Shown: positions 2,843-25,188, counted from the stretch's first letter. The stretch: 64,000 nucleotides of DNA from an uncultured Rickettsiales bacterium (GCA_964654855.1 CAZZJS010000002.1:15285-79284); one strand, 5' to 3'. Notes: generated by a model not told the origin, from the letters alone. Translations and numbers: made by a program.

Positions 2843-2858
2843 AGCAAAGGCAATGCCA
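2843..2858 (-). promoter_or_regulatory. sigma54 -24/-12 promoter for ugd
   Basis: Minus strand TGGCAT-TGCCT-TTGCT (GG-N10-GC), about 35 bp upstream of the start codon. Confidence 0.75.
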
Positions 2859-2931
2859 GCACATAACTCACTGTATTATAATTCTTTTTATATTTGGAAT
2901 TCAAAAAACTTTCCCAATCTGAATAAAAACC

Positions 2932-2946
2932 TTCCGAAATTGGGAG
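2932..2946. promoter_or_regulatory. Candidate activator-binding palindrome between two divergent sigma54 promoters
   Basis: TTCCG-AAATT-GGGAG; half-site TTCCCAATCT at 2911. Confidence 0.5.
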
Positions 2947-3068
2947 CTTTTGGGACTTCTCATCCAAGCTTGTTCAAAGCACCTTCCGATAGAACAAAAC
3001 ACTTAAGCTAATGTTTTATATAACCATATGGACAACACTCCACGCCTAAAAAATCGATAAGTTCGAGC

Positions 3069-3084
3069 TGGTACGGTTACTGCT
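3069..3084 (+). promoter_or_regulatory. sigma54 -24/-12 promoter for the REC-exosortase-GT operon
   Basis: TGGTAC-GGTTA-CTGCT (GG-N10-GC), 31 bp upstream of ATG 3116. Confidence 0.6.
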
Positions 3085-3115
3085 TAGCTATAGAGACATA
3101 CATAAAGGATAGATT

Positions 3116-3535
3116 ATGGAACTATATGCAAGAACAGATACCTCCTCCCATTCAGGATTAAAAATACTGATCGCAGAAGATGACATGACACATTTCATGC
3201 ACCTCTCCTCACTATTGCGAAAACGTGGGTATTACGTAAAAGTCGTAAATAATGGAAAGGATGCTTTGCACATGCTGCAAACAGAACCTTTTCATGCATT
3301 TTTTCTAGATTTGATGTTGCCTAAAGTCGATGGATTCGAAGTCATTGAAAAGTTACAAGAAACTCCTGAGTTACAAAAAACTCCTGTAATCATTACCTCA
3401 GCGCATATCATGCGTAACTTTATGCACCGGTTCCCTCAAGACAGTGTGAAAGGCTTTTTACCAAAACCTATCGATCCTTCTGTGCTAGATGGAGCATTGA
3501 GAAAAGTAGAGGGTCATGCACCTATCTCATCATAA
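3116..3535 (+). CDS. Single-domain response regulator (REC)
   Basis: KILIAEDD...FFLDLMLPKVDG...ITSA...LPKP. Confidence 0.9.
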   Translation: MELYARTDTSSHSGLKILIAEDDMTHFMHLSSLLRKRGYYVKVVNNGKDALHMLQTEPFHAFFLDLMLPKVDGFEVIEKLQETPELQKTPVIITSAHIMRNFMHRFPQDSVKGFLPKPIDPSVLDGALRKVEGHAPISS

Positions 3536-4367
3536 ACTGCTCGCATGGATCGCATTGATTGGCTGCTTAAATGGGCTTAGTCGATCTATACTCGTTTCAA
3601 TATCAGAGCATGGTATAGTCAATGCGGTTATATCTGGGTTCCATCTCAATTTATTTGTCGTGATTGCCATTATCGCTGCATTGCGCCTGATAATAGGCGC
3701 AAAAGATAGCCACCCCCTCACGCTTACCGATAAGCATATAATCTCATTATTTTTCATTATATTAATGATTCCCAGCGCTATGACTAGCTGGTCTACTCTG
3801 GCTTGTTTCTCACTTTGGTGTATCTGGAAATATCGTCATAACCCGCGGGTATGTGCTGGCTTTTCTATCCTATTGGCCGTTGGAATACGTGAGCCAGTAG
3901 TGATGATATTGTTAAAAAGTCTGGCACCCGTGGTGCTAACTTTAGATGCAGTATTCGCACAAACATTTGCTGACTTTATGGGATTGTCTTCTCAACGCCA
4001 TGATAACCTAATTACTACAGAGCAAGGTCGATCAATTCTTATTCTCGCAGGGTGTTCTTCAGTCAGCAACCTTTCCCTAATTTGGTTAGGGTGGCTGGTC
4101 GTAGCACGCAACCTATCTTATCAATGGCAAAAACGTGATGCACTCGCACTTACAACACTCACCCTGATGGTACTAATACTTAACTGGCTTCGCCTAGCAG
4201 TGCTAACTCTCTCTCAAGAAGCGTATCACTGGCTCCATGGTGAGACCGGCCTCATAGTATATCAAACCATATTACTCATTCTGATGTTTCTAATTATTCG
4301 GAGGATCTATGCAAAAGAGATTATGGATTATTATCATCCTGCTCGCCAGCATCACGCTGTGGGGTAA
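3516..4367 (+). CDS. Exosortase/archaeosortase-family membrane transpeptidase
   Basis: About 8 hydrophobic segments with Cys (ILAGCSSVSNL), Arg (LNWLRLAVL) and His (YHWLHGETG) in the exosortase order. Confidence 0.75.
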   Translation: MHLSHHKLLAWIALIGCLNGLSRSILVSISEHGIVNAVISGFHLNLFVVIAIIAALRLIIGAKDSHPLTLTDKHIISLFFIILMIPSAMTSWSTLACFSLWCIWKYRHNPRVCAGFSILLAVGIREPVVMILLKSLAPVVLTLDAVFAQTFADFMGLSSQRHDNLITTEQGRSILILAGCSSVSNLSLIWLGWLVVARNLSYQWQKRDALALTTLTLMVLILNWLRLAVLTLSQEAYHWLHGETGLIVYQTILLILMFLIIRRIYAKEIMDYYHPARQHHAVG

Positions 4368-4791
4368 GGTCATGCGTTATCATACGCCTCTTCACAACAT
4401 AGAAGAGCATGTAAACATACAGTTAGAAAACACCATGAAAGAGCAAGGTTTCGAGCTTCTGGCACACCAAACCCTCACTTCAAGCGGTGTATTCTCTGCC
4501 TATCATTACACACACCAAAACTGTATTGGAGAGCTTACGATTACTCCTCTTTTCAAAAGCGCAGAAGCCGTCAGCATGGTTCAAAAGGACAGCCAAAAAC
4601 CAGTTTTCTATTATCGCCATTATCAAGGCGAAGCATTTCCGAACTGGTATTATCTCTGGCGCGAAGGAATTGCCCCATTACGACGCATGGCAGAGCTAGA
4701 AACCATTACCTTTCCCGCTGTTCTAGCGATATATGATCCATCAAATTGCGTGCAAGATGCATCCCTTTCGTTTGAGGAGTTCTGGCAATGA
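4309..4791 (+). CDS. Exosortase-adjacent protein with one N-terminal TM/signal segment (EpsI-like position)
   Basis: Hydrophobic LWIIIILLASITLWG followed by a soluble domain; overlaps exosortase 3' end; ATGA overlap with next gene. Confidence 0.55.
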   Translation: MQKRLWIIIILLASITLWGKVMRYHTPLHNIEEHVNIQLENTMKEQGFELLAHQTLTSSGVFSAYHYTHQNCIGELTITPLFKSAEAVSMVQKDSQKPVFYYRHYQGEAFPNWYYLWREGIAPLRRMAELETITFPAVLAIYDPSNCVQDASLSFEEFWQ

Positions 4792-5828
4792 GTCATTTCC
4801 TAAATAAAAAACAAGAAATTTGGCTAACAGTCGATTCCCGTCACTTTGGTGGAATTGAAACACATCTTTACCAACTAGCCACTGGATTGGTCAAAACAGG
4901 CTATCACCCACGTATTGTCTTCTTACGCGATTACGGCAAACACCCTTTAAGAAAGGCATTGCAAAAAGCCGAAATTCCCATCACTACTCTCACCCACCCT
5001 TTACGAGGATGGAAAGAAGCAATCTCACATTATAAACCTGCTTTGATTCATACACATGGTTATAAAGCAGGAATATTAGGCCGCCTCGCCGCTTATCGAA
5101 ATAATATTGCCTGTGTGTCTACCTATCATAGCGGAGATGCCAATAATGGTCGCTTAAAATGCTATCGCTGGTTCGATGAGCACACCGCTTCGCTCGCACA
5201 AAAGGTGATTGCCATAAGCGAGAATGTGGCTGCACGACTCCCCTCTCATGCGGCTATTATCCCTAACTTTGTGCCTGTTCCTTCAGATATCACTGAGCAT
5301 ACCGGTAAGCACATTGCCTTTGTTGGTCGACTTTCACACGAAAAAGGGCCTGACTATTTTGTAGAACTCGCAAAATCACTCCCCCAACACCTCTTTACCG
5401 TATATGGCGATGGCCCCATGCGCGAAACATTAGATGTTGTAGAAAATTTGAATTTTATTGGACAAGTCGATTCAATGGAACCTCACTGGCAAAAGATTGA
5501 TTTGCTTATTATGCCTTCTCGCCGCGAAGGTTTACCACTCGCAGCCTTAGAATCCATGGCACATAGAATCCCCGTAATCGCAAGCGCCGTAGGTGGTCTC
5601 CCCTCTCTTATACAAGATAAAGAAAACGGATTTTTGGTAGAAACCGGTAACCTCGCAGAATTGAGTAAGATTGCCTCTCATTGGTACCAGTTAGATGAGG
5701 TCACTCGCCAAACCATATGCCAAAAAGCGCAACAAACAGTTCGCGAGCAATACTCACCAGAAGTCATTTTACCGCAAATTATTCAACAATATGAGGAAGC
5801 TTATGCGCATCGGCACCCTACTCGGTAG
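4788..5828 (+). CDS. GT4 glycosyltransferase (SypH-like)
   Basis: GGIETH, HTHGYKA, FVGRLSHEKG, PSRREGLPLAALESMA. Confidence 0.9.
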   Translation: MSHFLNKKQEIWLTVDSRHFGGIETHLYQLATGLVKTGYHPRIVFLRDYGKHPLRKALQKAEIPITTLTHPLRGWKEAISHYKPALIHTHGYKAGILGRLAAYRNNIACVSTYHSGDANNGRLKCYRWFDEHTASLAQKVIAISENVAARLPSHAAIIPNFVPVPSDITEHTGKHIAFVGRLSHEKGPDYFVELAKSLPQHLFTVYGDGPMRETLDVVENLNFIGQVDSMEPHWQKIDLLIMPSRREGLPLAALESMAHRIPVIASAVGGLPSLIQDKENGFLVETGNLAELSKIASHWYQLDEVTRQTICQKAQQTVREQYSPEVILPQIIQQYEEAYAHRHPTR

Positions 5829-6963
5829 TTTCCCTGTTTTATCTGAAAGTTTTATTCGTAATGAAATTCATGCATTGCGTAAAACCGGCCTACCCGTTGA
5901 TATCGTTGCGATGGTTAAGGAGGAGAGCACACAGCTTTCCAAACAAGAACAGGAATTGGTAAAGACTGCCACCTATTTGCAAGATCTACCACCCCCATCG
6001 TGGAGTAAGGTATTAAAATTCCTACCCAATATCCTATCAATCATCCCATTTTTGTGGGCACAGAAAGAATTATCACCAGCATCCTTGCTTTATCACGGTA
6101 TCAGAATAGCCCTTAAAGGCTATGAGCTAGGATGGACACATATCCATACGCATTTTGCTTGGGGGCATGCTTCTTACGCGATTGTAGCCGCAAAGTTATT
6201 AAACATTCCCGTTACCTTAACGTGCCATGGATCGGATGTGTATGCCACACCACAAGACTTGCAGGCCAAGTTAGATCATAGTGATTCGATCATTGCCGTA
6301 TGCGATGAAATGCGAGAAACTCTTGCCGCACAAACGCACACTCCTATACAGATAATTGCTTGCGGAGTGGATACAGACGAATTTACTCCACTAAAAACGA
6401 AGAAATCGAATGGTCGATTATTATTCGTCGGACGCTTAATCGATTGCAAAGGCGTGGACGATTTACTGCATGCAATGACTGCATTACCCACCAAACACCG
6501 ATTACCTCTAGATATTATCGGTGATGGCCCTTTGCGCGCTGAACTTGAACAACTCAGCAAAGAATTAGAATTAGACGAGTCAGTTTCTTTCTTAGGCGCA
6601 AAACCAGCCAACTGGTTGAAAAAGAATGGCCCGCATTATCATGCATTTGTCTCTGCATTTCGAGAAGGAGAAGACGGTGCTAAGGATACTGGTCCCATCG
6701 TAATCAAGGAAGCAATGGCAATGGGTTTGCCCATTATAAGCACTGAATTTATGGGAATTCCAGAGATGGTTGACCCCACTTGTGGCACCCTTATTCCTCC
6801 TAAAAATCGCGAAGCATTGCAGCAAGCTCTCTTCCAGCTTTGGGAAAAACCAGAGAGCAAACGACTCAGAATGGGAGAAAATGGCCGAAAGAAGTTAATC
6901 GATAATTTCTCGATTAACAAGCAAATACACGATCTTAGGTCGTTATGGAGTGATCTGGCATAA
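5803..6963 (+). CDS. GT4 glycosyltransferase (SypI/J-like)
   Basis: FPVLSESFIRNEI, HIHTHF, FVGRLIDCKG, DTGPIVIKEAMAMG; start chosen at the ATG after a GAGG SD. Confidence 0.9.
   Translation: MRIGTLLGSFPVLSESFIRNEIHALRKTGLPVDIVAMVKEESTQLSKQEQELVKTATYLQDLPPPSWSKVLKFLPNILSIIPFLWAQKELSPASLLYHGIRIALKGYELGWTHIHTHFAWGHASYAIVAAKLLNIPVTLTCHGSDVYATPQDLQAKLDHSDSIIAVCDEMRETLAAQTHTPIQIIACGVDTDEFTPLKTKKSNGRLLFVGRLIDCKGVDDLLHAMTALPTKHRLPLDIIGDGPLRAELEQLSKELELDESVSFLGAKPANWLKKNGPHYHAFVSAFREGEDGAKDTGPIVIKEAMAMGLPIISTEFMGIPEMVDPTCGTLIPPKNREALQQALFQLWEKPESKRLRMGENGRKKLIDNFSINKQIHDLRSLWSDLA
6832..6846. promoter_or_regulatory. Candidate activator-binding palindrome
   Basis: TTCCA-GCTTT-GGGAA, about 110 bp upstream of the sigma54 site at 6956. 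Confidence 0.45.
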
Positions 6964-6971
6964 GTCATGCT
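6956..6971 (+). promoter_or_regulatory. sigma54 -24/-12 promoter for flippase-ligase-DUF1194
   Basis: TGGCAT-AAGTC-ATGCT (GG-N10-GC) spanning the GT stop codon, 47 bp before ATG 7019. Confidence 0.6.
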
Positions 6972-7018
6972 CCCAACAATTAGCAAGAATTAATTACTAA
7001 TTTTAATAAGGAACATGC

Positions 7019-8323
7019 ATGCGTCACTTTTTTCGCTCTTTAAACCATGCCCTCTGCTACGCGTTGGCGATTGCATTAGGCAAAGGTGTGTCGCTTTTGA
7101 TGCTACCCATTATCACCCATGCATTACCCGTTGCTGATTATGGACGATTAGAGCTAATGGTCGCCATTGCGGATATGGGGGGAGTTTTGCTTGGATTTAG
7201 CCTCGTCGATGCGCTATTTCGTTTCTCGGGCAGTGCTAAAACTCTAAAGCGCTCCAAAAAGCAAGCCGCCTCTATTTTTGGATTATGTTTAGTTTTGGCA
7301 CTTGTTGCGCTTTTATTCGGACAGCTATTAATACCAGCCTTACTACTTATCTTACCTGAATCCGTTATCGAAAGTGAGTTACGCATTCTGCTAGCCACCT
7401 TGTCGTTAACGGCTTTAATACAGGTACCGCTAGCCTGGTTACGCATGCAAGATCATGTGTACCGCTATTGTTTCTTATTTGGCGGGAAGGCACTACTCCA
7501 AGCTGGGCTAATCTGGACAGCACTGCATGCAGGTTATGGTGTTGTAGGTATCTTACTAGCAGGGTTAATGGTCGATCTTCTGCTTTGCGCCATTTTGTGC
7601 GCACAACAATATAGTCAAACTTCTGTGCGCTTTCACTGGTTAGAGACAAAATGTATTCTACCTTATAGCCTGCCTTTAATTCTGGGCGCGTTAGCTTGTT
7701 GTCTGCTCGGCAGTTTTGATCGTTTCTTTTTAGCCCCAATCGTAGGGGAAACGGCCTTGGCTCATTATGCATTAGCCGGTAAATTTGCTTTGATGGTCGC
7801 GCTACTCGCTGAACCTTTTAACATGTGGTGGTTTCCTCGTCGTTTTCGTCTCCTACAAGAACAAGATGGTGCATTACACAGCGCACGCAATGTGATGCTG
7901 GGAGTCGGCTATATTACTATCGCAGCAGCCATGGTTTCTGCGTTAGCTCCTTGTTTAATCACATGGCTAACTCCTGAAACTTATCACTCAGCTACCAAAT
8001 GGGTAGCGCCCTTATGCGGGATCGCGGCCTTACATGCGATCACTAACTTAATGAATATTGGAGTTTATGCAGGACGCACCGGCTGGCTCCCTAGCTTCAT
8101 CAACTTAAGCAGCGCAACTATCGCACTCATCGGATACCTACTACTTATCCCAATACACGGTGTCGGCGGTGCTATTGGTGCCACTTATCTGGCATTCGGA
8201 GTACGATTCGGTCTCTTTTTCTTCCTCAGTCAACAGCGTGTACCCATTCCTTATTTACGAGGTCTCGCCTCATTATGGAGCGATATAGGATTCAAAAGGA
8301 GGCTGTCTTATGAGCTTTCCTAA
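7019..8323 (+). CDS. Wzx-type polysaccharide flippase (SypK-like)
   Basis: Many TM segments; LLMLPIITHALPVADYG; DRFFLAPIVG..ALAHYALA. Confidence 0.85.
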   Translation: MRHFFRSLNHALCYALAIALGKGVSLLMLPIITHALPVADYGRLELMVAIADMGGVLLGFSLVDALFRFSGSAKTLKRSKKQAASIFGLCLVLALVALLFGQLLIPALLLILPESVIESELRILLATLSLTALIQVPLAWLRMQDHVYRYCFLFGGKALLQAGLIWTALHAGYGVVGILLAGLMVDLLLCAILCAQQYSQTSVRFHWLETKCILPYSLPLILGALACCLLGSFDRFFLAPIVGETALAHYALAGKFALMVALLAEPFNMWWFPRRFRLLQEQDGALHSARNVMLGVGYITIAAAMVSALAPCLITWLTPETYHSATKWVAPLCGIAALHAITNLMNIGVYAGRTGWLPSFINLSSATIALIGYLLLIPIHGVGGAIGATYLAFGVRFGLFFFLSQQRVPIPYLRGLASLWSDIGFKRRLSYELS

Positions 8324-9746: not shown

Positions 9747-10627
9747 TTTGTTTTTTCAAAAAACTGGTTGTTCCTGCCTTCATGGCAAGCACAACCTTAT
9801 TATACAGCACGCAAGCTTCGGCTCAGGATGTTGATGTAGAGCTTCAGCTTTTAATCGATGTATCTGGCAGTGTTAGCACCAGTGAGTATAATCTGATGAT
9901 GGATGGCTACGCTAACGCCTTCCGTAACGATTCAGTTCAGGACATTATCCTGAATAATTCTGGCGAAAATTTCGGAAGTATTGCTGTCCAAACGGTGATG
10001 TGGTCTAGCCAAAACCTACAGAGTACCATGACCGATTGGACCCTTCTCAATAGTATCGACAGTATTAATAATTACGCCTCTACCCTAGGCAGTATGGATC
10101 GTGCTTTTGGCGGCGCCACTTATCTGGCAGAAGGTCTTGATTACGGTGCCAATCTATTTTCGGATAATGGCTTTAACGGTACACGTAGCGTGATCGACAT
10201 TTCCGGCGACGGATATGGTTATGATTATCTGTATAAAGATTATTCTTTCTTCACAGGCGGAGATACTGCAACCCAGCGTGATGACGTGCTGGCCTCTGGT
10301 ATCACTACCATTAATGGGATTACGTTGGAAGGCACCTATGCTCAGTCTGGCGACCAAACCCTCACAGAATGGTATTCAACTAATGTAACAGGTGGTGATA
10401 ATGCTTTTGTCATCGCTGCAAATGGATTTGGTGACTTCGAGCGTGCTTTGGTCACCAAATTAAGCGCCGAGATTGAAGGTGGCTACATTCCGATCGAAGC
10501 CACTCCGGCCAATCCGATTGATACCGCACCCGCTCCCATTCTGGGAACTGGTCTTCCCATTTTGTTGCTTCTGCTACTATATAATAAATTTTTATTTATA
10601 AAAAACAGACAGTTAAGTGTGGCATAG
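9743..10627 (+). CDS. Secreted DUF1194 (vWA-fold) protein with PEP-CTERM-like C-terminal sorting signal
   Basis: Signal peptide ending ASA-QD; DVELQLLIDVSGSVS; VIDISGDG; TINGI; C-terminus APAPILGTGLP-ILLLLLLY-NKFLFIKNR. Confidence 0.8.
   Translation: MICFFKKLVVPAFMASTTLLYSTQASAQDVDVELQLLIDVSGSVSTSEYNLMMDGYANAFRNDSVQDIILNNSGENFGSIAVQTVMWSSQNLQSTMTDWTLLNSIDSINNYASTLGSMDRAFGGATYLAEGLDYGANLFSDNGFNGTRSVIDISGDGYGYDYLYKDYSFFTGGDTATQRDDVLASGITTINGITLEGTYAQSGDQTLTEWYSTNVTGGDNAFVIAANGFGDFERALVTKLSAEIEGGYIPIEATPANPIDTAPAPILGTGLPILLLLLLYNKFLFIKNRQLSVA
10533..10547. promoter_or_regulatory. Candidate activator-binding palindrome inside the sorting-signal codons
   Basis: CTCCC-ATTCT-GGGAA about 73 bp upstream of the sigma54 site at 10620; half-site TTCCCATTTT 21 bp further on. 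Confidence 0.45.
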
Positions 10628-10635
10628 GGATTGCT
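10620..10635 (+). promoter_or_regulatory. sigma54 -24/-12 promoter for the acetyltransferase (sypM-like) operon
   Basis: TGGCAT-AGGGA-TTGCT, near-consensus. Confidence 0.75.
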
Positions 10636-10734
10636 CCTCTTTTGTTAGACATAATGACAAAAGAGGAGTTTAGCCATGTGTGGCATTACCAACAAAACCG
10701 ATGCTCTCGAATTAGTGAAAGTTGGAGTAAGAAC

Positions 10735-11430
10735 ATGACCGTTTACGCATTAAAACAATGGGTCAAAAATGGTGATCATCCAGTCGCAAGACAAATAAAA
10801 CGCGTCGCACGAAGCGGCATGCCGCAAATCACATTCTTACATCGCAACCTGTATCGCCTGCACATAGGGTTACGCAACTTATGGGCCGAAACTACACGAA
10901 TTTTCTATTACACTCCTTTACTGCAAGCACGGTTAGTTTTTCCTTGTAAGCAGCTTTATCTTTATAGTGGCTTACCTTTTATCACTGGCTCGCTAGAAAT
11001 CACCTTAGGTGATAATTGTCGTATCTCAGGAAAAACAACTTTCAGCGGCCGCCCGGCAAGCGGCACACCTTCTTTAGTCGTGGGTAATAATTGCGATATT
11101 GGTTGGCAAAATACTATCGCCGTCGGCACTAAGGTAGAATTAAAAAACAATGTACGTTTAAGCGGCAATGTTTTCTTAGCGGGCTATCCCGGACATCCAT
11201 TAGATCAACAAGATCGCGCAGCCGGATACCCCTGCACACAAGAACAAATCGGCGATATTATTTTAGAAGACGATGTATGGCTAGCAACCGGCGTTACCGT
11301 CTTAGCGGGTGTCACAGTTGGTAAAGGCAGCATCATCGGCGCAAGCAGCGTCGTCACCAAAGACATTCCAGCTGGTGTCGTAGCAGCTGGCGTTCCAGCT
11401 CGTATCGTAAAGGAGCTAAACCATGACTGA
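10735..11430 (+). CDS. Hexapeptide-repeat sugar O-acetyltransferase (SypM-like)
   Basis: GHPLD, DIILEDDVWLATGVTVLAGVTVGKGSIIGASSVVTKDIPAG..AAGVPARIVK; start at the ATG after a GGAG SD. Confidence 0.9.
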   Translation: MTVYALKQWVKNGDHPVARQIKRVARSGMPQITFLHRNLYRLHIGLRNLWAETTRIFYYTPLLQARLVFPCKQLYLYSGLPFITGSLEITLGDNCRISGKTTFSGRPASGTPSLVVGNNCDIGWQNTIAVGTKVELKNNVRLSGNVFLAGYPGHPLDQQDRAAGYPCTQEQIGDIILEDDVWLATGVTVLAGVTVGKGSIIGASSVVTKDIPAGVVAAGVPARIVKELNHD

Positions 11431-12544
11431 TATTATTGTTTTCGGCGAAGATTACGGCGTACACCCGAGTTCTACTCAGCATTTAATGAATCGCTTAGCA
11501 GCAAATCATCGCATTATCTGGTTGAACTCTATCGGTTTACGTGCACCAAAACTTACATTGAACGATATGATGCGAATTATTCGTAAAGCCACAACGATAT
11601 TAACCGCGCGTCTTGCTCGAACAGATTCCGCACAGAATCAAACTAAAGCTCCTTTTCCAGTCTTACAGCCTATTGCCTTACCTTTCCCAGACTCTTCATT
11701 GGCACGTAAGGTCAATCAATGGCTGCTTAAACGCCAAATGCAAAAACTCATCAAGCGTTACGACTTACAACACCCTACCTTATGGACATCCCTTCCCTCT
11801 GCTGTGGATGCGGTCTGCCCAGAAATGAAACGCACCCTCTATTACTGTGGTGATGACTTCTCAGCGCTGGATGGGGTTGACCATAAGGCTGTTGAAGCGA
11901 TGGAAACAGAGCTAATTGATCAAGCTGATTTAGTTATTTCAGCCAGCAAATCTCTCCATCAACGCATGCCGCAAGAAAAACGCCTATTTCTCCCACATGG
12001 CGTTGATATTACACTATTTACCCGTAGGTTAGCCTGCCCACCAGAACTACAAAAAACGCGTAAACGTGCTTGCTTTTATGGCTCCATTGCTTCTTGGGTC
12101 AAGCTAGATTGGATTGCGTATGCGGCGCGTATGTTACCTGAATGGGAATTCATTTTAATCGGCAATATTAAAGCAGATGTTTCATCACTAAAGACAGAAC
12201 AAAACATCATCTTTACTGGTGCAATGGCTCATGATGAATTGGTACGCTATGCCAACCATTGCGATGTCTTGCTTATGCCATTTGCAGATAATGGACAGAT
12301 TCGCCACTGCAATCCGCTCAAACTTTATGAGTATTTGGCCATCGGAAAGCCGATTGTCACCACACAATTTCCAGCGATTGAACCATATCAGTCATTGCTT
12401 CACATCGCCGATTCAGCTGAGAGCTTTGTCTCTTGTCTGCTGGAAGCAGAAAAAGAAGGCAATCGACGCCTTCGCCAACGACAACAATCCGTACGCTGGG
12501 AAGATTGGAACCAACGTGCACAACAACTGGAGGAATGGCTATGA
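11423..12544 (+). CDS. Glycosyltransferase family 1/4 (SypN-like)
   Basis: GEDYGVHPSSTQHL, YYCGDDF, CNPLKLYEYLAIGKPIV. Confidence 0.85.
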   Translation: MTDIIVFGEDYGVHPSSTQHLMNRLAANHRIIWLNSIGLRAPKLTLNDMMRIIRKATTILTARLARTDSAQNQTKAPFPVLQPIALPFPDSSLARKVNQWLLKRQMQKLIKRYDLQHPTLWTSLPSAVDAVCPEMKRTLYYCGDDFSALDGVDHKAVEAMETELIDQADLVISASKSLHQRMPQEKRLFLPHGVDITLFTRRLACPPELQKTRKRACFYGSIASWVKLDWIAYAARMLPEWEFILIGNIKADVSSLKTEQNIIFTGAMAHDELVRYANHCDVLLMPFADNGQIRHCNPLKLYEYLAIGKPIVTTQFPAIEPYQSLLHIADSAESFVSCLLEAEKEGNRRLRQRQQSVRWEDWNQRAQQLEEWL

Positions 12545-12888
12545 TGAACCGCACCCCCCTTACACTCTTACTTATAATGCTTGGTCTAAGTGCCTGCGCG
12601 CCGCAAACCATTCATGATCTAATTCCCGCACATCAACTTAATATGATGCAAGTTGAGTCTTACATACAACCAGAAGGTGGTTTTTTACTCAAACCCGATC
12701 TGGCTGAGCCAAAACAACCAGCAGCGGAAGTTGTGGCACCGGCAATACCTCAGACTCACCCAGCGTGGGCTCCCGCAGCTCATCCAGCGCCCAATAGCAT
12801 AACCTCACCTTCTGAAGCGATTTCGGTTTCTAGCATGTTGCAACAAACACTTGATTACGCCCAAGACAACAAAGGAAATTCAAAATGA
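12541..12888 (+). CDS. Small Pro/Ala-rich lipoprotein
   Basis: Lipobox LSAC after hydrophobic LTLLLIMLG; ATGA overlaps on both sides. Confidence 0.65.
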   Translation: MMNRTPLTLLLIMLGLSACAPQTIHDLIPAHQLNMMQVESYIQPEGGFLLKPDLAEPKQPAAEVVAPAIPQTHPAWAPAAHPAPNSITSPSEAISVSSMLQQTLDYAQDNKGNSK

Positions 12889-16752: not shown

Positions 16753-17393
16753 CCACCTCTAACGATCCTTATCTTTCTTTTTCAACAACTTGCATTAAGC
16801 GCACTTTAGATATTACATGCTCTCTCATTGGCGGATTAATACTTCTTCCCCTCCTCCCTCTTATTGCTCTAGCCGTTAAATTAGATTCCCCAGGGCCCAT
16901 ATTTTTTAAGCAATTACGCATTGGTGAGCAATATCACAATCACACACGACTATTCATGATGGTGAAATTTCGTACGATGATCGTAGATGCAGAGGAGTCC
17001 GGAGCCAAATGGGCTTCCCAAAATGATCCTCGTATTACCAAAGTGGGAAATTTTCTACGTAAAACACGCCTGGATGAGTTACCTCAATTACTCAATGTAC
17101 TAAAAGGTGATATGTCTTTAGTTGGCCCTCGCCCAGAGCGCCCAGGCTTCTATCATACGCTTGAAAATGCCATCCCACTTTATGCTGATCGCACCTATGG
17201 TTTAAAACCGGGCATAACCGGATTTGCTCAGGTTTTACAAGGGTATGACGAGACAATCGAAGATGTAAGAAGCAAAGTTGGATACGACCATGCCTATGCA
17301 TTAATGTTACAAAATGCATGGACAGCTCTTTGCGCTGATATCAAAATTTTATGGATGACAATTAGCGTCGTTATCCATGGTCGGGGACAGTAA
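16749..17393 (+). CDS. Polyprenyl-phosphate sugar transferase (SypR-like priming glycosyltransferase)
   Basis: KRTLDI, DSPGPIFFKQLRIG, KFRTM, DPRITKVGNFLRKTRLDELPQL, SLVGPRPERP. Confidence 0.93.
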   Translation: MTTSNDPYLSFSTTCIKRTLDITCSLIGGLILLPLLPLIALAVKLDSPGPIFFKQLRIGEQYHNHTRLFMMVKFRTMIVDAEESGAKWASQNDPRITKVGNFLRKTRLDELPQLLNVLKGDMSLVGPRPERPGFYHTLENAIPLYADRTYGLKPGITGFAQVLQGYDETIEDVRSKVGYDHAYALMLQNAWTALCADIKILWMTISVVIHGRGQ

Positions 17394-17402
17394 AATGTAA
17401 AC

Positions 17403-17418
17403 TGGCACACCCGTTGCT
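17403..17418 (+). promoter_or_regulatory. sigma54 -24/-12 promoter for the STAS (sypA-like) operon
   Basis: TGGCAC-ACCCG-TTGCT, full consensus, 42 bp upstream of ATG 17461. Confidence 0.85.
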
Positions 17419-17460
17419 CCTATTCAGATACGTTAAGACGAATTAATAAAGGAGCAAATC

Positions 17461-17784
17461 ATGCCACATAGTATCGAACAACAAGACCAACAAACGGTTC
17501 TTACCCTTTCCGGCAGTTTAGACTCAGAAGAAACTCTCACTCTTAAACCCATTATAGACCAGTTTATCGAAACTGAATCTACCCACCTAACCGTAGAGAT
17601 GACAGAAGTCCATTTTCTGGATTCTTCTGGCATCGGCATACTGGTCTATGCCTTCAAACGTTTACGCAGTGACGAACGAGAAATCACCTTACGTAATGTG
17701 CAAGGACAACCTTCAGACCTAATGCGTATGCTTCGTATCGATAAAGCGATTACAATGGAAAGCTCTACAGGAGAAGCAGCATGA
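17461..17784 (+). CDS. STAS-domain anti-sigma-factor antagonist (SypA-like)
   Basis: VHFLDSSGIG phospho-serine motif, 107 aa. Confidence 0.9.
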   Translation: MPHSIEQQDQQTVLTLSGSLDSEETLTLKPIIDQFIETESTHLTVEMTEVHFLDSSGIGILVYAFKRLRSDEREITLRNVQGQPSDLMRMLRIDKAITMESSTGEAA

Positions 17785-18224
17785 AACCGACTCTCCTAAT
17801 TTCTGTAATCGCGCTACTAGCCGGATGCAGCAGCTTCCCCCCTTATGGAACAGGTGGTTTTGCTGAGCATCAACGCTACACACATGAAAATGCTTATCCG
17901 AAAGCATTTACTCACTTTATCGGCAATTCACGCCAACGTGGCTGGCAGCATTATAATCTCAGAGCTATCAACTGCATCGATCATCGTCTAGCAGAGTTAC
18001 GCCAGCATGGCATCAATGAGCATTACCCCGCACAGCTCTGGTTAATTGAACAACAGCGTAATCGTACCTTGCGTCTTTTTGCAGGTGGCTTGGGCTGGGA
18101 TGCCGAACGTGAAGTTCAAGAGCTTTACCAAATGATGGAAGATTTGCAGGAGCGTCTAATTGATCAAAACCAGATCAAAATGGACTTCTACCAACATCCG
18201 GAGAAAACCCAATGCGATATTTAA
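17781..18224 (+). CDS. Lipoprotein in the sypB position; no OmpA domain seen
   Basis: Lipobox LLAGC followed by SSFPPYGTGGFAEH; translationally coupled to both neighbours. Confidence 0.65.
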   Translation: MKPTLLISVIALLAGCSSFPPYGTGGFAEHQRYTHENAYPKAFTHFIGNSRQRGWQHYNLRAINCIDHRLAELRQHGINEHYPAQLWLIEQQRNRTLRLFAGGLGWDAEREVQELYQMMEDLQERLIDQNQIKMDFYQHPEKTQCDI

Positions 18225-20440: not shown

Positions 20441-20441
20441 A

Positions 20442-21197
20442 ATGACAGCCTATCAAATTCAATCTTCCAACACTCCGAACAACCCTGATAACATTACAAT
20501 CCCTGTTCATTACGTAGATATTGACCCACTCTTTAATGCCAGCATTGCACGCGGAGTGCGCAGCCTTTGCATAACCTCAAGTATGGCAAGAGAAGGAGTT
20601 TCAACCGTTGCATACTCTATTGCCAAACGCAGTGCAGCCAGCGGCAAAAAAACTCTGCTGGTAGATGCGAATTTAAATAACCCATGTGTAGGAGATAGAT
20701 TAGGCATTACTCAAAAAGATTGGGACGGAGAATTGAGTACTCTAACAGACGCACTTCATCACTTTGAAGGCATTAATTTGTCAATTCTAACAGGACTAAA
20801 TCGCCCTATTGCACCTTTAAACCTACGCGATCCCAATGGCATTAAAGAGTGGATAGAAAATCTGCTAGCGCAATTTGATATTATCATATTCGATTGCGCC
20901 CCCATAGGAGTTCCGTGCAACCAAGGAATTCCTAGCGATATCATAGCAACAAACTGTGACGGCTGTGTGTTGGTCGCGCAAGCAACACACACACCGCAAG
21001 AGCAACTATTACAGGCAATCTCTCACCTTCAAAATGTACAAGTTCCCTTATTGGGCTGTGTACTTAATCGCCAACATTATCCAGGGCTTTCAACGGAGAT
21101 GAAGAACGCCCTTCTATCAACTAAAACCCCTAAATTTATGGAGACATTATGGACACGGTTTATCATCAAACTACAGCATATCGAAACAATGCTGTAA
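20442..21197 (+). CDS. CpsD/CapB-like P-loop protein (SypD-like)
   Basis: ITSSMAREGVSTVA (degenerate Walker A), LLVDANL, IIIFDCAP, DGCVLVA, LGCVLNR. Confidence 0.8.
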   Translation: MTAYQIQSSNTPNNPDNITIPVHYVDIDPLFNASIARGVRSLCITSSMAREGVSTVAYSIAKRSAASGKKTLLVDANLNNPCVGDRLGITQKDWDGELSTLTDALHHFEGINLSILTGLNRPIAPLNLRDPNGIKEWIENLLAQFDIIIFDCAPIGVPCNQGIPSDIIATNCDGCVLVAQATHTPQEQLLQAISHLQNVQVPLLGCVLNRQHYPGLSTEMKNALLSTKTPKFMETLWTRFIIKLQHIETML

Positions 21198-22207
21198 TTA
21201 CCTCATTACGTACAACATTTTCTTATTTCGTAAGGCAAATTATGCATCTAACAAAAATGACTTTTTGGGGATTATTACTTATTAACGCCAGTTTATGCGT
21301 TATCTCCATTTTTGGTGATTTATTCTGGATCTCTGATGTATTGCATAATTTTGCTTTACACCTATTAGCCGGTTTTATTGTACTTTCAGTGACAGGTTTA
21401 TTGATAAAACAGCGAAAACTAGCAGCCATGGCGCTACTATTTATGATTCTACAAACTCTTCATATATCCCCACAACTACCAGAACTTTTACCCTTTTCAT
21501 CTCAACAAAACTGTGTCGAATGTAGCGGTGAAGAAATTAGCATTTTTCAATACAACTTACTCTTTTCAAACCCCAATATTCCCAAACTAGTAGAAGTAAT
21601 GCTTTCAAGGTTAGAACACGATGTCCTCGTATTCCAAGAAGTAACTGGCGCACACCAAGAAACGCTCGCACCGCTTGAATTTGCCTACCCCTTTGTCTAT
21701 CAGCAAAAAGACATTCGAGTATTTAGTCGGCTTCCTCTCGAAAAAGTAAGTTATAGCAAACATAATGCGTTTCTGGAGCTGATTGGACAAACCTCGCGTG
21801 CTCAAACGCCGTTCCATCTATTTGCAATTCACAGTACAGCACCCATTAATGCCCAAGCATGGAAAAAACGTAACCAACTGCTTATTGGTGCTGCTAAACA
21901 AATTGCGAAAGCTCCTATGCAACATAAGATACTCGTCGGCGATATGAACATAACTTCATATTCAAAATGGTTTCAGAAACTCATTAACTTGTCTGGCCTG
22001 CAAAACAACCAGAACCAACCGTTAATGAAGCCTAGTTGGTCACCTTTGGATAATCAGCCAATCTGGGCAAGTTTGAGAATTGACCATTTACTTACCAGTC
22101 CCTCAGTACAGGTACTAGAGCAACATATCGGCAATGACTTTGGCTCTGACCATCTACCAATTATCACACGGCTACAATTAACTAATGACGGATTATCAAC
22201 GCGGTAA
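21149..22207 (+). CDS. Membrane-anchored endonuclease/exonuclease/phosphatase family protein
   Basis: N-terminal TMs; QYNLL, VFQEV, LVGDMN, IDHLL, GSDHLPI; true start may be ATG 21242. Confidence 0.85.
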   Translation: MDTVYHQTTAYRNNAVITSLRTTFSYFVRQIMHLTKMTFWGLLLINASLCVISIFGDLFWISDVLHNFALHLLAGFIVLSVTGLLIKQRKLAAMALLFMILQTLHISPQLPELLPFSSQQNCVECSGEEISIFQYNLLFSNPNIPKLVEVMLSRLEHDVLVFQEVTGAHQETLAPLEFAYPFVYQQKDIRVFSRLPLEKVSYSKHNAFLELIGQTSRAQTPFHLFAIHSTAPINAQAWKKRNQLLIGAAKQIAKAPMQHKILVGDMNITSYSKWFQKLINLSGLQNNQNQPLMKPSWSPLDNQPIWASLRIDHLLTSPSVQVLEQHIGNDFGSDHLPIITRLQLTNDGLSTR

Positions 22208-23714
22208 CATCATCATATAGCACTTCACCAAAGTGCTGCGTATATCCGCTCCATAAATTGTCAGTCGATAATGAAGAGGTAGAGTTCTTTAACCATTTAT
22301 CAAATTGCTGCTGGGCTTGTGGGTCTCGGTTACCTTCCGTTAAACCATCGCTATACAATAAAACAGCCTGATTCTTAGATAATGTTAGCGAGTAAGACTC
22401 ATAAACTGTTCCCGCAAGCAACCCTGGCAACGCCCCCTCTATTGGCATCAGCTTTGCTCCCCCTTTGTCTAATAATATCGGAGGAGGATGCCCAGCACTG
22501 GCGATGGAAATAACCTCTTTGCGCAAAGAAACAATCTGACATGTAATGAAATTACCCGCCAGATACGGGTCAGCATCAATCATATCACTTAACCGTGCCA
22601 TCAGCACTTCTGGTGGTTCAACCGAGTCCATATGCTTGAGCAAACCATACAGATATCCCCCATATAAATGAGCGAAATACTTAGCTTTCGTGCCATGCCC
22701 CGTCACATCCGCGAGAAGAAGCAATTCATCCTGCGAACGTTTAAAATGCAGCACCATATCGCCGCCACCTGCACTGGCTTCCTTAAAGAGAAGTTCCGCT
22801 TCATACCCAGCAACATTAGAAGGGCAATGTGGAATCATCCTATCCGTTGCCTCAGCATCCAACTTTTCACCAATAGAATGAGTCAATTGCTGATTGCGTT
22901 GTAAAACGCGATGTACCGTATTGAGCAACTTCTCCTTCTCGATCGGCTTAGGCAAATAATCATCAACCCCCAAATCATAAGCTTGCTGTTCAATTGTGCT
23001 ATTCTCATTCGCAGTTAGAAAAACAAAGGGAATTGCTCGCAGAGCCGTATCTTGTTCTATTTGTTGACGCAGGGTAATACCATCCACATCTGGCAAACCA
23101 ATATCGCAAAGCACTAGATCAATCGATTGTGATTGCAAGATACCTTTAGCTTCTTGAGCATTGTAAGCCAGTAGAACATTATATTCTTCACCAAACATTT
23201 TGCGAATAAGCAAAGCCATAGGCTGCACATCTTCTACCACCAAGATCGTAGAAACAGAAGTTGAGCCAAATTCAGCAGCCAAGTTTTCTAGCGTGAAAGA
23301 CAAGATATTTTTCTCATCTTTGCGCTCATATTTCACCTTCGGAAAATGCTCACGTAGTAAATATAACCCCATACCTCCCGTATCGAGCTTTTCAACATCT
23401 AGCGTATCAGATAGTTGCTTTAGTTTTTGTTCAAATTCAGAGAAATAAGATCCATCATCTACGACACTAAAGGCCAGCATTCCCTGCGCTTCATCATGTT
23501 CTGCACGAATCAAAATATTATCTGCAACGTGTGAAGCATGCTCTACCAGATTCGTTATCCATTCTGAAAGCACTAACTGTACCGTCTGAATATCTTTATC
23601 AGTTAAATACTCGTTTAAGGCTTCTGCCAAATCATCCCGCAAAGGTCTGATTGCCGAAATCTCTGGGCGACATTCCTGATTAAAAATAGGAGTCATAATA
23701 GATAAAGTTTGCAT
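22182..23714 (-). CDS. RsbW-like kinase + REC + PP2C (SpoIIE) phosphatase (SypE-like)
   Basis: SEWITNLVEHA..VVDDG..GGMGLYL; ILVVED..DLVLCDIGLP..KP; GGDMV..LADVTGHG..YSDGLTE..DDVT. Confidence 0.88.
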   Translation of the reverse strand: MQTLSIMTPIFNQECRPEISAIRPLRDDLAEALNEYLTDKDIQTVQLVLSEWITNLVEHASHVADNILIRAEHDEAQGMLAFSVVDDGSYFSEFEQKLKQLSDTLDVEKLDTGGMGLYLLREHFPKVKYERKDEKNILSFTLENLAAEFGSTSVSTILVVEDVQPMALLIRKMFGEEYNVLLAYNAQEAKGILQSQSIDLVLCDIGLPDVDGITLRQQIEQDTALRAIPFVFLTANENSTIEQQAYDLGVDDYLPKPIEKEKLLNTVHRVLQRNQQLTHSIGEKLDAEATDRMIPHCPSNVAGYEAELLFKEASAGGGDMVLHFKRSQDELLLLADVTGHGTKAKYFAHLYGGYLYGLLKHMDSVEPPEVLMARLSDMIDADPYLAGNFITCQIVSLRKEVISIASAGHPPPILLDKGGAKLMPIEGALPGLLAGTVYESYSLTLSKNQAVLLYSDGLTEGNRDPQAQQQFDKWLKNSTSSLSTDNLWSGYTQHFGEVLYDDVTALIIRH

Positions 23715-23757
23715 TTTCTCTCAATCATCGCTGCTATGATGCTATGGTTAGTTATCT

Positions 23758-25035
23758 ATGAAAAGAATTCTACTCATTTCCTACTATTTCCCTCCGCAGA
23801 CGAGTGTTGGAACCTTTCGTTTAAAGCGCTTTGTTGATCATATGAAACAATGTGGTTTGGATGTTACCATCCTGACCGTCAAAAATCCCGATAAACAATT
23901 TCATCCTTATTCAGGAGAAATGCCTCAAGAAGATAAATACCTAGGTGCCCCCGTTCATAGGGTGGCAGAATGGCCTGTGCGCTGGGTATGGCAATGGCCA
24001 ACACGTGCAGCAAAATTTTTGAGTAAATTGCTACCCATGCCCTTTCAAGAGCATTCCTTTGCCTCTCGTTTTTGGCATATCGATATGGAGTGGGGATGGA
24101 TTCAACCCGCTTATCGCAAAGCACGAGAATTGCTTAAAGCAGAACCGTTAGATGCAATCGTGATTAGTTGTCCGCCCTTTAGCTCTGCACATATTGGCGC
24201 TAAATTAAAAAAGCATCATAATATCCCACTCATATTAGATTTTCGTGATGGCTGGGTTGCTTCCTCTCCTTACCTACATCAAGTGGCGAAAAAAGATGGG
24301 CCGATAGAACAAAAACTACTCACTCAAACGGATCACTTAATCGTGACCTCCAAAAGCGATCAAGAATGTTATCAAGCACTCTTGGGTAAAGATAAGGTAT
24401 CGTTAATCTATAATGGTTATGACACTCCTTTTATTCTCTCTCAAAACGAAACCCCTGAAACAGCTCCCAAGGATGATACATTAAAACTCCTATATCTCGG
24501 CGCATGGGGAGTATTTGGACGTTCGCCAGAAAGGTTATTAAGGGCTCTAAAAGCAGCAAATATCCCTTGGCACCTAACCTCTATCGGCAGCACCAATGAA
24601 ATAGTAGAAAAATCTGCCCAGAAATTAGGGGTAATGGGTTCTATCAAATTAATAAGCAATCAACCTAAAGAAGCTTTGATACCGTGGATTGCAGAATCAG
24701 ACGCCCTATTTGTTATTAAAGGAGCACCTCCGCAAGGTGGCCGCGATACGCATATTGCGGCCAAAATATACGATTATCTCGCAACAGGAAAAGCAGTGCT
24801 AGGGCAATTACCCGAAGGCGATAGTAAAGACATGCTAGAAGAATACTGCCACCAGCCATTTATTGCACCACCCGAGGATCATGAGCAGCTTATTCAGCAA
24901 ATCCAAGCAATGCACAAAGCAAAGATCGAAAATAGGTTGGTGCTCAAACCCAATGATAAATTCTTGAAAGAATTTAGCGGCGAAGAACTTACACGCAAAT
25001 TTGTAGAAACTATTCTCAAAACAAACACAATATAA
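23758..25035 (+). CDS. GT4 glycosyltransferase
   Basis: SYYFPP, VISCPPFSS, DFRDGW, YNGYD, AKIYDYLATGKAVL. Confidence 0.85.
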   Translation: MKRILLISYYFPPQTSVGTFRLKRFVDHMKQCGLDVTILTVKNPDKQFHPYSGEMPQEDKYLGAPVHRVAEWPVRWVWQWPTRAAKFLSKLLPMPFQEHSFASRFWHIDMEWGWIQPAYRKARELLKAEPLDAIVISCPPFSSAHIGAKLKKHHNIPLILDFRDGWVASSPYLHQVAKKDGPIEQKLLTQTDHLIVTSKSDQECYQALLGKDKVSLIYNGYDTPFILSQNETPETAPKDDTLKLLYLGAWGVFGRSPERLLRALKAANIPWHLTSIGSTNEIVEKSAQKLGVMGSIKLISNQPKEALIPWIAESDALFVIKGAPPQGGRDTHIAAKIYDYLATGKAVLGQLPEGDSKDMLEEYCHQPFIAPPEDHEQLIQQIQAMHKAKIENRLVLKPNDKFLKEFSGEELTRKFVETILKTNTI

Positions 25036-25041
25036 CCCCCA

Positions 25042-25085
25042 TTCCCATTTGGAGAGCCAAAGAGGTAAACTTCCCTAAATGGGAA
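25042..25085. promoter_or_regulatory. Tandem candidate activator-binding palindromes
   Basis: TTCCC-ATTTG-GAGAG (25042) and TTCCC-TAAAT-GGGAA (25071) upstream of the sigma54 site. Confidence 0.55.
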
Positions 25086-25136
25086 TAACTCAATCAAAAT
25101 ACAAAATTAAAGAACTGTTATATATAAATAATTTAA

Positions 25137-25152
25137 TGGCACCCTGCTTGCT
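25137..25152 (+). promoter_or_regulatory. sigma54 -24/-12 promoter for the hybrid kinase
   Basis: TGGCAC-CCTGC-TTGCT, full consensus, 36 bp upstream of ATG 25189. Confidence 0.85.
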
Positions 25153-25188
25153 ACGATACACATTAAGAGTGAAAAGGAGCCACCTAAG

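Follow-up and report, generated by a model that had tools for sequence, protein, structure and literature searches.

Putative sigma-54 promoters and a shared enhancer palindrome in a syp-type exopolysaccharide locus of an uncultured Rickettsiales bacterium

We analyzed 64,000 nucleotides (nt) of DNA from an uncultured Rickettsiales bacterium (GCA_964654855.1, CAZZJS010000002.1:15285-79284), hereafter called the window. Pfam matches identified the first 27 kb of the window as a permuted syp-type exopolysaccharide (EPS) and biofilm locus. A first-pass annotation had proposed that six sigma-54 promoters of the form GG-N10-GC partition this locus. All six 16-mers were present at the proposed coordinates and strands. 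Judging from the sequence, we think it probable (about 0.8) that the six sites are sigma-54 promoters organizing the locus and that an activator encoded in the locus acts through palindromes of the form TTCCCA-N3-TGGGAA. The palindrome and three more putative promoters upstream of the window were not part of the first-pass annotation and are new here. The host is a marine alphaproteobacterium with a small genome, whose assembly is 1.92 Mb long, 45% G+C and ~99% complete.

Placement and conservation of the sigma-54 sites

Each of the six sites has 0-2 mismatches to the consensus and scores 13.9-16.8 bits, and the spacing between GG and GC is exactly 10 nt. Two sites, 17403 and 25137, had been described as full consensus matches, and both showed zero mismatches to TGGCAC-N5-TTGCW (each being TGGCAC-N5-TTGCT). 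The six sites are as follows, with distances counted from the 3' end of the 16-mer.

2843 to 2858, minus strand: ugd promoter, TGGCATTGCCTTTGCT, 16.5 bits, 35 nt before the ATG at 2807
3069 to 3084, plus strand: promoter of an operon of REC, exosortase-like, 160-aa, GT4 and GT4 genes, TGGTACGGTTACTGCT, 14.1 bits, 31 nt before the ATG at 3116
6956 to 6971, plus strand: promoter of a flippase, Wzy and DUF1194 operon, TGGCATAAGTCATGCT, 13.9 bits, 47 nt before the ATG at 7019
10620 to 10635, plus strand: promoter of the operon running from the acetyltransferase to the sugar transferase, TGGCATAGGGATTGCT, 16.1 bits
17403 to 17418, plus strand: promoter of a STAS, lipoprotein, SypC-like, SypD-like and EEP operon, TGGCACACCCGTTGCT, perfect consensus, 16.6 bits, 42 nt before the ATG at 17461
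25137 to 25152, plus strand: hybrid kinase promoter, TGGCACCCTGCTTGCT, perfect consensus, 16.8 bits, 36 nt before the ATG at 25189

Transcription from the first site is predicted to start at about 2832, and it likely covers ugd and a 313-aa REC gene at 390-1331. Between the acetyltransferase site and the TTG of the longest open reading frame (ORF) there are only 6 nt. The true start of this gene is probably the ATG at 10735, 99 nt past the site, because the protein of a congener begins at the equivalent position.

The placement of the sites argues more strongly for promoters than their enrichment does. Non-coding DNA makes up ~3% of the region 2843-25152. Four of the sites lie wholly in non-coding DNA; the other two span a stop codon, the flippase site overlapping the TAA of the preceding GT4 gene and the acetyltransferase site the TAG of DUF1194. 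The window has four gaps of more than 40 nt between co-directional genes of the locus (6964-7018, 10628-10734, 17394-17460 and 25036-25188), and each of them holds exactly one site. The 308-nt divergent region between ugd and REC has one site per strand. All six sites lie 31-99 nt before a gene start. The proposed division of the EPS locus into operons is supported. Four of five starts (REC, flippase, STAS and kinase) have an AAGGA(G)-type ribosome-binding site, and ugd has a weaker one, GAAAGAG.

A genome-wide matrix scan, which had been suggested as a check, found the locus enriched when every GG-N10-GC was scored. There were 24 matches of at least 16 bits in 1.92 Mb, five of them in the 22.3-kb region compared with 0.22 expected (Poisson P = 3.8e-6). 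At a threshold of 13.9 bits or more, seven of the 85 genome matches fell in 2843-25152, compared with 0.92 expected (Poisson P = 4.8e-5). When the region was shuffled 1000 times with dinucleotides preserved, matches of at least 13.85 bits averaged 0.77 and never exceeded 4, against 7 observed.

These counts bear on the alternative that the matches are chance occurrences of GG-N10-GC without promoter function. A pattern search of the 64-kb window allowing up to two mismatches gave 49 matches, mildly above the 37.7 found in shuffles, and one strong match is evidently non-functional. This is the match TGGCATCAGCTTTGCT at 22443 to 22458 on the plus strand (16.2 bits). It was rejected as a seventh promoter, as it lies antisense inside the sypE-like coding sequence, 1.3 kb from the next plus-strand gene, with no TCCCA or TGGGA within 400 nt upstream; it is probably a chance match. 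However, none of the 1000 shuffles reached the observed count, the placement within so little non-coding DNA is not random, and the sites are both conserved in a congener and paired with a locus-specific palindrome. Chance alone is thus hardly a credible explanation.

Across the genome, 17 sites of at least 13.8 bits are well placed, that is, mostly non-coding and no more than 110 nt before a co-directional start. Eight of the 17 are in the locus. Five of the nine outside it precede genes with flagellar Pfam matches (flagellin, an FlgF/G-type rod protein, FliX, FlgI and an FlgB-type rod protein). The remaining four precede two large proteins whose sequences resemble FliK and FlgK, a 132-aa protein without a Pfam match, and nuoA. 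As the well-placed sites elsewhere mostly precede flagellar genes, the matrix recovered a classic alphaproteobacterial sigma-54 regulon, which served as an internal positive control. Sigma-54 in this genome seems from these sites to serve two modules, flagella and the EPS locus. The flagellar sites are distributed over contigs C4, C5, C6 and C7 and imply a Caulobacter-like FlbD/FliX hierarchy in a small genome.

The sites were also compared between species. Among 40 sampled relatives, one (G002, of the same genus) has an orthologous SypE-like protein, with 66% identity, and on its 47-kb contig the gene order of the locus is unchanged. Elements at -24/-12 were found in this congener at all eight orthologous places, with GG and GC kept and variable spacers. 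They include all five of the proposed sites whose downstream gene is present there. The PAS kinase gene is absent from the congener locus, and the kinase promoter has no counterpart for comparison. The congener elements are listed below.

ugd: TGGCATCTCATTTGCT, 36 nt before ugd
REC: TGGTATAAGAACTGCT, at the aligned position
Flippase: TGGCACAGCTTGTGCG, at the aligned position
Acetyltransferase operon: TGGCACGAGCATTGCT, with a glmS-like gene between it and the acetyltransferase
STAS: TGGCATGGCCGTTGCT
Activator operon: TGGCATAGCGCTTGCG
Hpt gene: TGGCATGGCAATTGCC
Receiver gene: TGGCACGTCTTTTGCG

In the ugd-REC intergenic region, the three elements (the two promoters and an enhancer block) were identical to the congener at 63 of 76 positions, compared with 108 of 232 in the remainder (Fisher P = 1.4e-8).

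It could still be that only the strong sites (2843, 10620, 17403 and 25137) work, and that 3069 and 6956 are fortuitous, their genes being read through or driven by sigma-70. We consider this quite unlikely. The ~14-bit level of these two sites is reached by ~80 sites in the genome, most of them inside genes, and sigma-70-like hexamers are present in the ugd-REC intergenic region. But each of the two is properly positioned, 31 or 47 nt ahead of its gene start, with a palindrome 117-130 nt upstream, and both keep GG-N10-GC in the congener at aligned positions while the flanking DNA diverges. A scan of the locus for sigma-70-like promoters revealed no enrichment, the matches being rarer than in shuffles (27 versus 43).

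The putative enhancer palindrome and the locus activator

Just upstream of the window lie three more predicted sigma-54 promoters, one each ahead of the operon that contains the activator gene, an Hpt gene and a receiver gene. They lie in L001 (C2:1-16000).

Divergent region 13268-13523 of L001, minus strand: Hpt-gene promoter, TGGTATGACAATTGCT, 46 nt before the Hpt-domain gene
Divergent region 13268-13523 of L001, plus strand: activator-operon promoter, TGGCACATGCATTGCG, 38 nt before a 229-aa ORF, which is followed by the activator gene
L001: receiver-gene promoter, TGGCACATCTCCTGCG, 47 nt before the receiver gene at 11852-12715

The tandem palindromes TTCCCATATTGGGAT and TTCCCATATTGGGGC of the divergent region lie between the first two of these sites. 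With these sites, among them the activator-operon promoter and its palindromes, the locus has about nine promoters and the activator is therefore predicted to be autoregulated.

Among all 2080 strand-collapsed hexamers, TGGGAA/TTCCCA was the most enriched from -20 to -250 of the nine promoters, with 10 occurrences observed and 0.85 expected (P = 2.4e-8); ATGGGA ranked second. Its full form is the palindrome TTCCCA-N3-TGGGAA. There are eight matches to TTCCCANNNTGGGAA with at most one mismatch in the genome, four of them in the locus. We then counted a pair wherever a palindrome with at most two mismatches had a sigma-54 match of at least 12 bits 30-250 nt downstream. Of 11 such pairs genome-wide, nine are in the locus, whereas about two would be expected by chance in the whole genome. 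Upstream activator sites of the predicted TTCCCA-N3-TGGGAA family are thus both enriched and locus-specific.

The palindromes mostly occur in pairs, 21-29 nt apart. The proximal palindrome is centered 59-61 or 80-81 nt upstream of the 16-mer at the ugd, acetyltransferase, kinase, Hpt and activator-operon promoters; at the flippase and REC promoters, the centers are 117 and 130 nt upstream. The following elements were assigned in the window.

2911 to 2946: enhancer block shared by the divergent ugd and REC promoters, 15-mers TTCCCAATCTGAATA and TTCCGAAATTGGGAG, 21 bp apart
6832 to 6877: candidate enhancer of the flippase promoter, TTCCAGCTTTGGGAA plus a TGGGAG half-site at 6872, within the coding end of GT4
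10533 to 10568: acetyltransferase enhancer pair, CTCCCATTCTGGGAA and TTCCCATTTTGTTGC, centered ~80 and ~59 nt upstream of the 16-mer
17015 to 17049: candidate distal enhancer pair of the STAS promoter, TTCCCAAAATGATCC and TTACCAAAGTGGGAA, ~360-390 nt upstream, inside the sugar-transferase gene
25042 to 25085: kinase enhancer pair, TTCCCATTTGGAGAG and TTCCCTAAATGGGAA, in non-coding DNA

The palindromes were conserved in the congener as well. Of the 44-nt ugd/REC enhancer block, 39 positions are identical, compared with 47% in the rest of the intergenic region. The palindrome cores at the acetyltransferase promoter are identical in the congener, where the segment is non-coding, so coding constraint does not explain their conservation. 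The flippase enhancer elements are also conserved, but as coding DNA they are less informative. The distal STAS pair falls within a 47-nt run that is 100% identical in the congener, synonymous positions included; its assignment to the STAS promoter is tentative.

Two other candidates were discarded. The hairpin at 10542-10559 resembles a terminator, but it is built from two enhancer half-sites and lies inside an ORF, and we therefore read it as part of the enhancer. A palindrome-like sequence at 12134 might have been the enhancer of the missing sypO/sypP-type promoter, but no GG-N10-GC of at least 9 bits follows it.

The genome has the machinery that such promoters require: rpoN is present (C3:~141.5 kb), together with an activator of the GAFTGA type. 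Four proteins in the genome have a sigma-54 interaction domain above threshold.

Locus activator: REC-AAA+-HTH_8 protein of the NtrC family, with a GSFTGA loop
FlbD-like protein: DNA-binding, keeps the GAFTGA loop, 723.6 bits (cut-off 750)
NtrX: 673 bits against a cut-off of 600, without GAFTGA
Truncated protein: AAA domain only

With the others eliminated, the locus activator is left as the natural candidate for driving the promoters outside the flagellar module. Beside the FlbD-like activator, FliX is encoded in the genome, as fits an alphaproteobacterium. The locus activator is 79% identical to its counterpart in the congener, with a near-identical HTH; within its own order, activators in 27 of 151 genomes are 46-53% identical to it. 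It falls below every NCBIfam equivalog cut-off (NtrC 400, PrsR 399 and LuxO 374 bits).

Some or all of the promoters, if real, might instead depend on a different activator, for instance the FlbD-like protein, with the palindromes bound by another regulator such as a repressor or one of three locus proteins that combine an N-terminal domain with REC. These three paralogues, whose N-terminal domain is unassigned, could have an unrecognized DNA-binding role, and the locus activator is just 36% identical to the activator of a Psychromonas syp locus. However, the palindrome shares its 6-N3-6 form with the SypG and LuxO enhancers and lies at a typical enhancer distance. The combination of palindrome and sigma-54 site is essentially confined to the locus, where it also precedes the activator's own operon. 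The only other DNA-binding activator bearing GAFTGA is the FlbD-like protein, and the flagellar promoters are without the palindrome. We therefore consider a different driver unlikely.

Several observations count against our preferred reading, in which the locus activator drives the sites through the palindromes. The weight matrix was our own approximation of the published consensus, and a score alone is no proof, because the match at 22443 is equally strong and evidently has no function. The two lowest scores of the six, ~14 bits, belong to sites 3069 and 6956. The TTCCCA/TGGGAA repeats were first noticed by eye, before the exhaustive hexamer test. No palindrome was found within 250 nt upstream of the STAS promoter, and the 47-nt run that holds its distal candidate pair encodes the most conserved protein motif. 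The flippase candidate enhancer sits in coding DNA. The footprinting compared a single pair of genomes, at ~50-88% DNA identity, the congener being the sole other genome with an orthologous locus. Finally, the locus of a more distant relative, L020, an alphaproteobacterial contig whose SypE-like protein is 53% identical, has no sigma-54 site before its STAS gene, and the promoter architecture is therefore not universal among relatives.

If the preferred reading is correct, the activator would be phosphorylated through a relay from the hybrid kinase to Hpt. It would bind paired TTCCCA-N3-TGGGAA-type palindromes, usually centered ~60-130 nt upstream of the -24 element, and would act simultaneously on about nine promoters by remodeling the closed complexes of the sigma-54 holoenzyme there. 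The circuit would feed back on its own signalling parts, because the activator operon, the Hpt and receiver genes and the PAS hybrid kinase gene all carry the unit of promoter plus palindrome. A positive feedback loop had been suggested if the kinase promoter is activated by the locus's own activator. The loop itself agrees with the finding of the same palindrome at the kinase promoter and the activator operon. We think it most likely that about nine promoters, those of the activator and the kinase among them, are driven by the locus activator in a feedback loop that may be of either sign.

Gene content and changes around the promoters

The gene assignments behind the proposed promoters (ugd, the operon of REC and exosortase-like genes, flippase, hexapeptide acetyltransferase, STAS and PAS hybrid kinase) agreed with Pfam. 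The genes of the locus in the window are as follows.

1 to 459, plus strand: 3' end of the sigma-54 activator gene, AAA lid and HTH_8; the full gene, C2:14307-15743, starts upstream of the window
390 to 1331, minus strand: REC protein, 313 aa
1347 to 2807, minus strand: ugd
From 3116, plus strand: small REC protein
From 3516, plus strand: exosortase-like protein, 22.0 bits, just under its signature cut-off of 23
From 4788 and from 5695, plus strand: two GT4 glycosyltransferases
From 7019, plus strand: flippase
From 8310, plus strand: Wzy
From 9743, plus strand: DUF1194 protein
From 10642 (longest ORF), plus strand: hexapeptide acetyltransferase
From 11423, plus strand: GT1
From 12885, plus strand: chain-length protein
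From 14468, plus strand: GT4
From 15544, plus strand: GT2
From 16731, plus strand: priming sugar transferase
From 17461, plus strand: STAS protein (sypA-like)
From 17781, plus strand: lipoprotein
From 18212, plus strand: Wza/SLBB exporter (SypC-like)
From 20442, plus strand: ParA-like protein (SypD-like)
From 21149, plus strand: EEP protein
22182 to 23714, minus strand: HATPase_c_2-REC-SpoIIE protein (SypE-like)
From 23758, plus strand: GT4
25189 to 27093, plus strand: PAS-HisKA-HATPase-REC hybrid sensor kinase, without an Hpt domain; candidate phosphorelay input

Pfam matches show that, as in a syp locus, a SypA-type STAS protein is encoded together with a SypE-type protein (HATPase_c_2-REC-SpoIIE) and with genes for EPS export and assembly. 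Homologues of the SypE-like protein were found in canonical syp-type loci of Psychromonas and of metagenomes. Nearly all co-directional neighbors in the locus overlap or abut, and a single 93-nt junction (12-13 kb) precedes an Hpt-like gene. The sypE-like gene is inverted relative to its neighbors, with a 43-nt divergent gap to the GT4 gene at 23758. No recognizable sigma-54 promoter was found in this gap, and the promoter of the sypE-like gene must therefore lie within coding DNA.

The three paralogous proteins with a receiver domain are ~280-310 aa long, with ~160 aa of an unassigned domain at the N-terminus and the receiver at the C-terminus. Their genes (window 390-1331; L001 10975-11823 and 11852-12715) are all on the minus strand.

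The acetyltransferase operon differs between the two congeners. In G002, a 590-aa glmS-like gene (MCGIVG...) lies between the sigma-54 promoter and the acetyltransferase (L015 150-222, 1925-2011). In its place, the window has a 20-codon remnant ORF at 10677-10739, MCGITNKTDALELVKVGVRT (window 10636-10745), which still has its ribosome-binding site and overlaps the acetyltransferase start (10735) in an ATGA. To judge by these remains, it looks like an internal deletion left a coupling mini-ORF. On the other side of the promoter, the enhancer palindromes encode the C-terminal tail of DUF1194 (...APAPILGTGLPILLLLLLYNKF..., window 10440-10627). In the congener (L015 1990-2450), the DUF1194 gene stops ~270 nt sooner, its hydrophobic tail is a different one, and the enhancer lies outside coding DNA. 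The 'atypical sorting signal' of DUF1194 may therefore have arisen incidentally, when a deletion joined the ORF to regulatory DNA.

Upstream of the window, the first gene of the activator operon (L001 13524-14213) is the 229-aa ORF, which has no Pfam match and is weakly similar to the LuxQ kinase core. Its counterpart in the congener is 348 aa long. The ORF might encode a kinase or phosphatase that has degenerated. Where the locus ends (L001 8861-10956), a gene for a truncated haemoglobin (Bac_globin) and the start of a hybrid kinase gene (HisKA-HATPase-REC-Hpt) overlap, and by analogy the two may form a gas (O2/NO) input. The arrangement is reminiscent of the syp locus of V. fischeri, which receives HnoX/HahK input.

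Relation to syp and other sigma-54 systems

In V. fischeri, the syp locus consists of four operons (sypA, sypI, sypM and sypP), and every one of them has SypG sites along with its sigma-54 promoter (PMC10804989). SypG acts at these four promoters through the enhancer TTCTCANNNTGMDWN, a 6-N3-6 palindrome TTCTCANNNTG..., and the LuxO enhancer is also an N3-spaced palindrome, TTGCAWWWTGCAA (PMC10162802). The locus studied here has in common with syp the STAS protein, the SypE-like protein of the RsbW-REC-PP2C type, Wza/SLBB, flippase, Wzy, acetyltransferase, glycosyltransferases and the priming sugar transferase. Both also have a locus-encoded REC-AAA+-HTH_8 activator and hybrid kinase, several internal sigma-54 promoters with upstream sites, and an enhancer that is a 6-N3-6 palindrome.

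In contrast to syp, the gene order here is permuted and the sypE-like gene is inverted. There are about nine promoters instead of four, with extra ones at ugd, the operon of REC and exosortase-like genes, the flippase, the kinase, Hpt, the receiver and the activator operon. The Hpt protein is separate, each signalling gene is separately wired, and the genome, of 1.9 Mb, is that of an alphaproteobacterium. Between the activator and that of a gammaproteobacterial syp locus, the similarity is only distant (36% identity, as given above for Psychromonas), against 46-53% within its own order, and it may or may not be an orthologue of SypG. The first-pass annotation had stated that the promoters occupy the same positions as in V. 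fischeri. This holds for the sypA-like STAS gene and the sypM-like acetyltransferase gene (PMC5801674), but it does not hold for sypI and sypP, and the promoters of the flippase, ugd, REC and kinase are additional. No site of 9 bits or more was found before the sypP-like GT4 or the sypI-like GT4 gene, and the four-promoter pattern of syp is not reproduced.

The enhancers differ by one base per half-site, TTCCCA here and TTCTCA in V. fischeri. The published SypG enhancer TTCTCANNNTGMDW had 14 matches with at most one mismatch in the window, compared with 17.6 expected, and none was positioned upstream of the promoters; the one-base variant TTCCCA-N3-TGGGAA occurs in its place. Before the receiver-gene promoter (L001 12740-12800), GTCTCATAATGAGAG has TCTCA half-sites like those of V. 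fischeri. The congener has TTCCCTAAATGGGAG at the same place (L015 15900-15920), a natural variation at the base that separates the two enhancer types. In Psychromonas, the -24/-12 element AGGCACACCCCCTGCA lies 39 nt before the STAS gene. In L027, a canonical syp locus from a metagenome, TTCGCACATTGCGAA is upstream of the site TGGCATGTTCTCTGCA before the STAS gene, which hints at a series of enhancers varying at one half-site position: TTCTCA (V. fischeri), TTCGCA (metagenomic syp locus) and TTCCCA (here). A search of genome contigs for related loci gave only an unrelated REC match, and exact-pattern scans of metagenome contigs with the conserved enhancer block and the sugar-transferase block gave no matches. 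Of 41 sampled genomes of the order, one congener alone had a true orthologue of the SypE-like protein.

Other sigma-54 systems are less similar. The LuxO/Qrr system of Vibrionaceae likewise has an NtrC-family regulator fed by a hybrid kinase through an Hpt protein (LuxU there) and an N3-spaced palindrome. However, the targets here are EPS and signalling operons rather than small RNAs, the half-site is different, and the activator scores 374 bits against the NCBIfam LuxO cut-off of 800. The PrsK/PrsR (PEP-CTERM-box) system also combines a sigma-54 activator with an EPS locus holding an exosortase-like gene, and TIGR02915 was among the best-scoring models for the activator. We rejected the activator as a PrsR member, since its score of 398.6 bits is below the cut-off of 502.6. 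No kinase of the PrsK type was identified, and the exosortase-like protein is also under its signature cut-off. The Caulobacter-type FlbD/FliX flagellar regulon shares the genome and the -24/-12 consensus with the locus; it differs in its activator, in having no TTCCCA palindromes and in its motility-gene targets.

It is conceivable, though we hold it doubtful, that the activator was recruited from an NtrC-like lineage of the host and is not a SypG orthologue, that the enhancer co-evolved by one base per half-site, and that the circuit forms a multi-node positive-feedback switch competing with the FlbD regulon. If so, the enhancers would belong to a natural series of orthogonal activator/enhancer pairs, and the single sigma-54 shared by both modules would couple the decision between motile and sessile life.

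The regulatory design itself is already known from V. fischeri syp. As an annotation it appears well supported and unsurprising, and it is not conceptually new. It yields an operon and regulon map for the EPS/biofilm locus of an uncultured marine alphaproteobacterium with a small genome. The TTCCCA-N3-TGGGAA variant may be of use in studies of activator/enhancer specificity or as an orthogonal sigma-54 part. The predicted network suggests that the syp-style design, in which one sigma-54 activator controls many operons through a short palindromic enhancer, reaches beyond Vibrionaceae, and its two modules would present a simple case of the choice between motility and biofilm.

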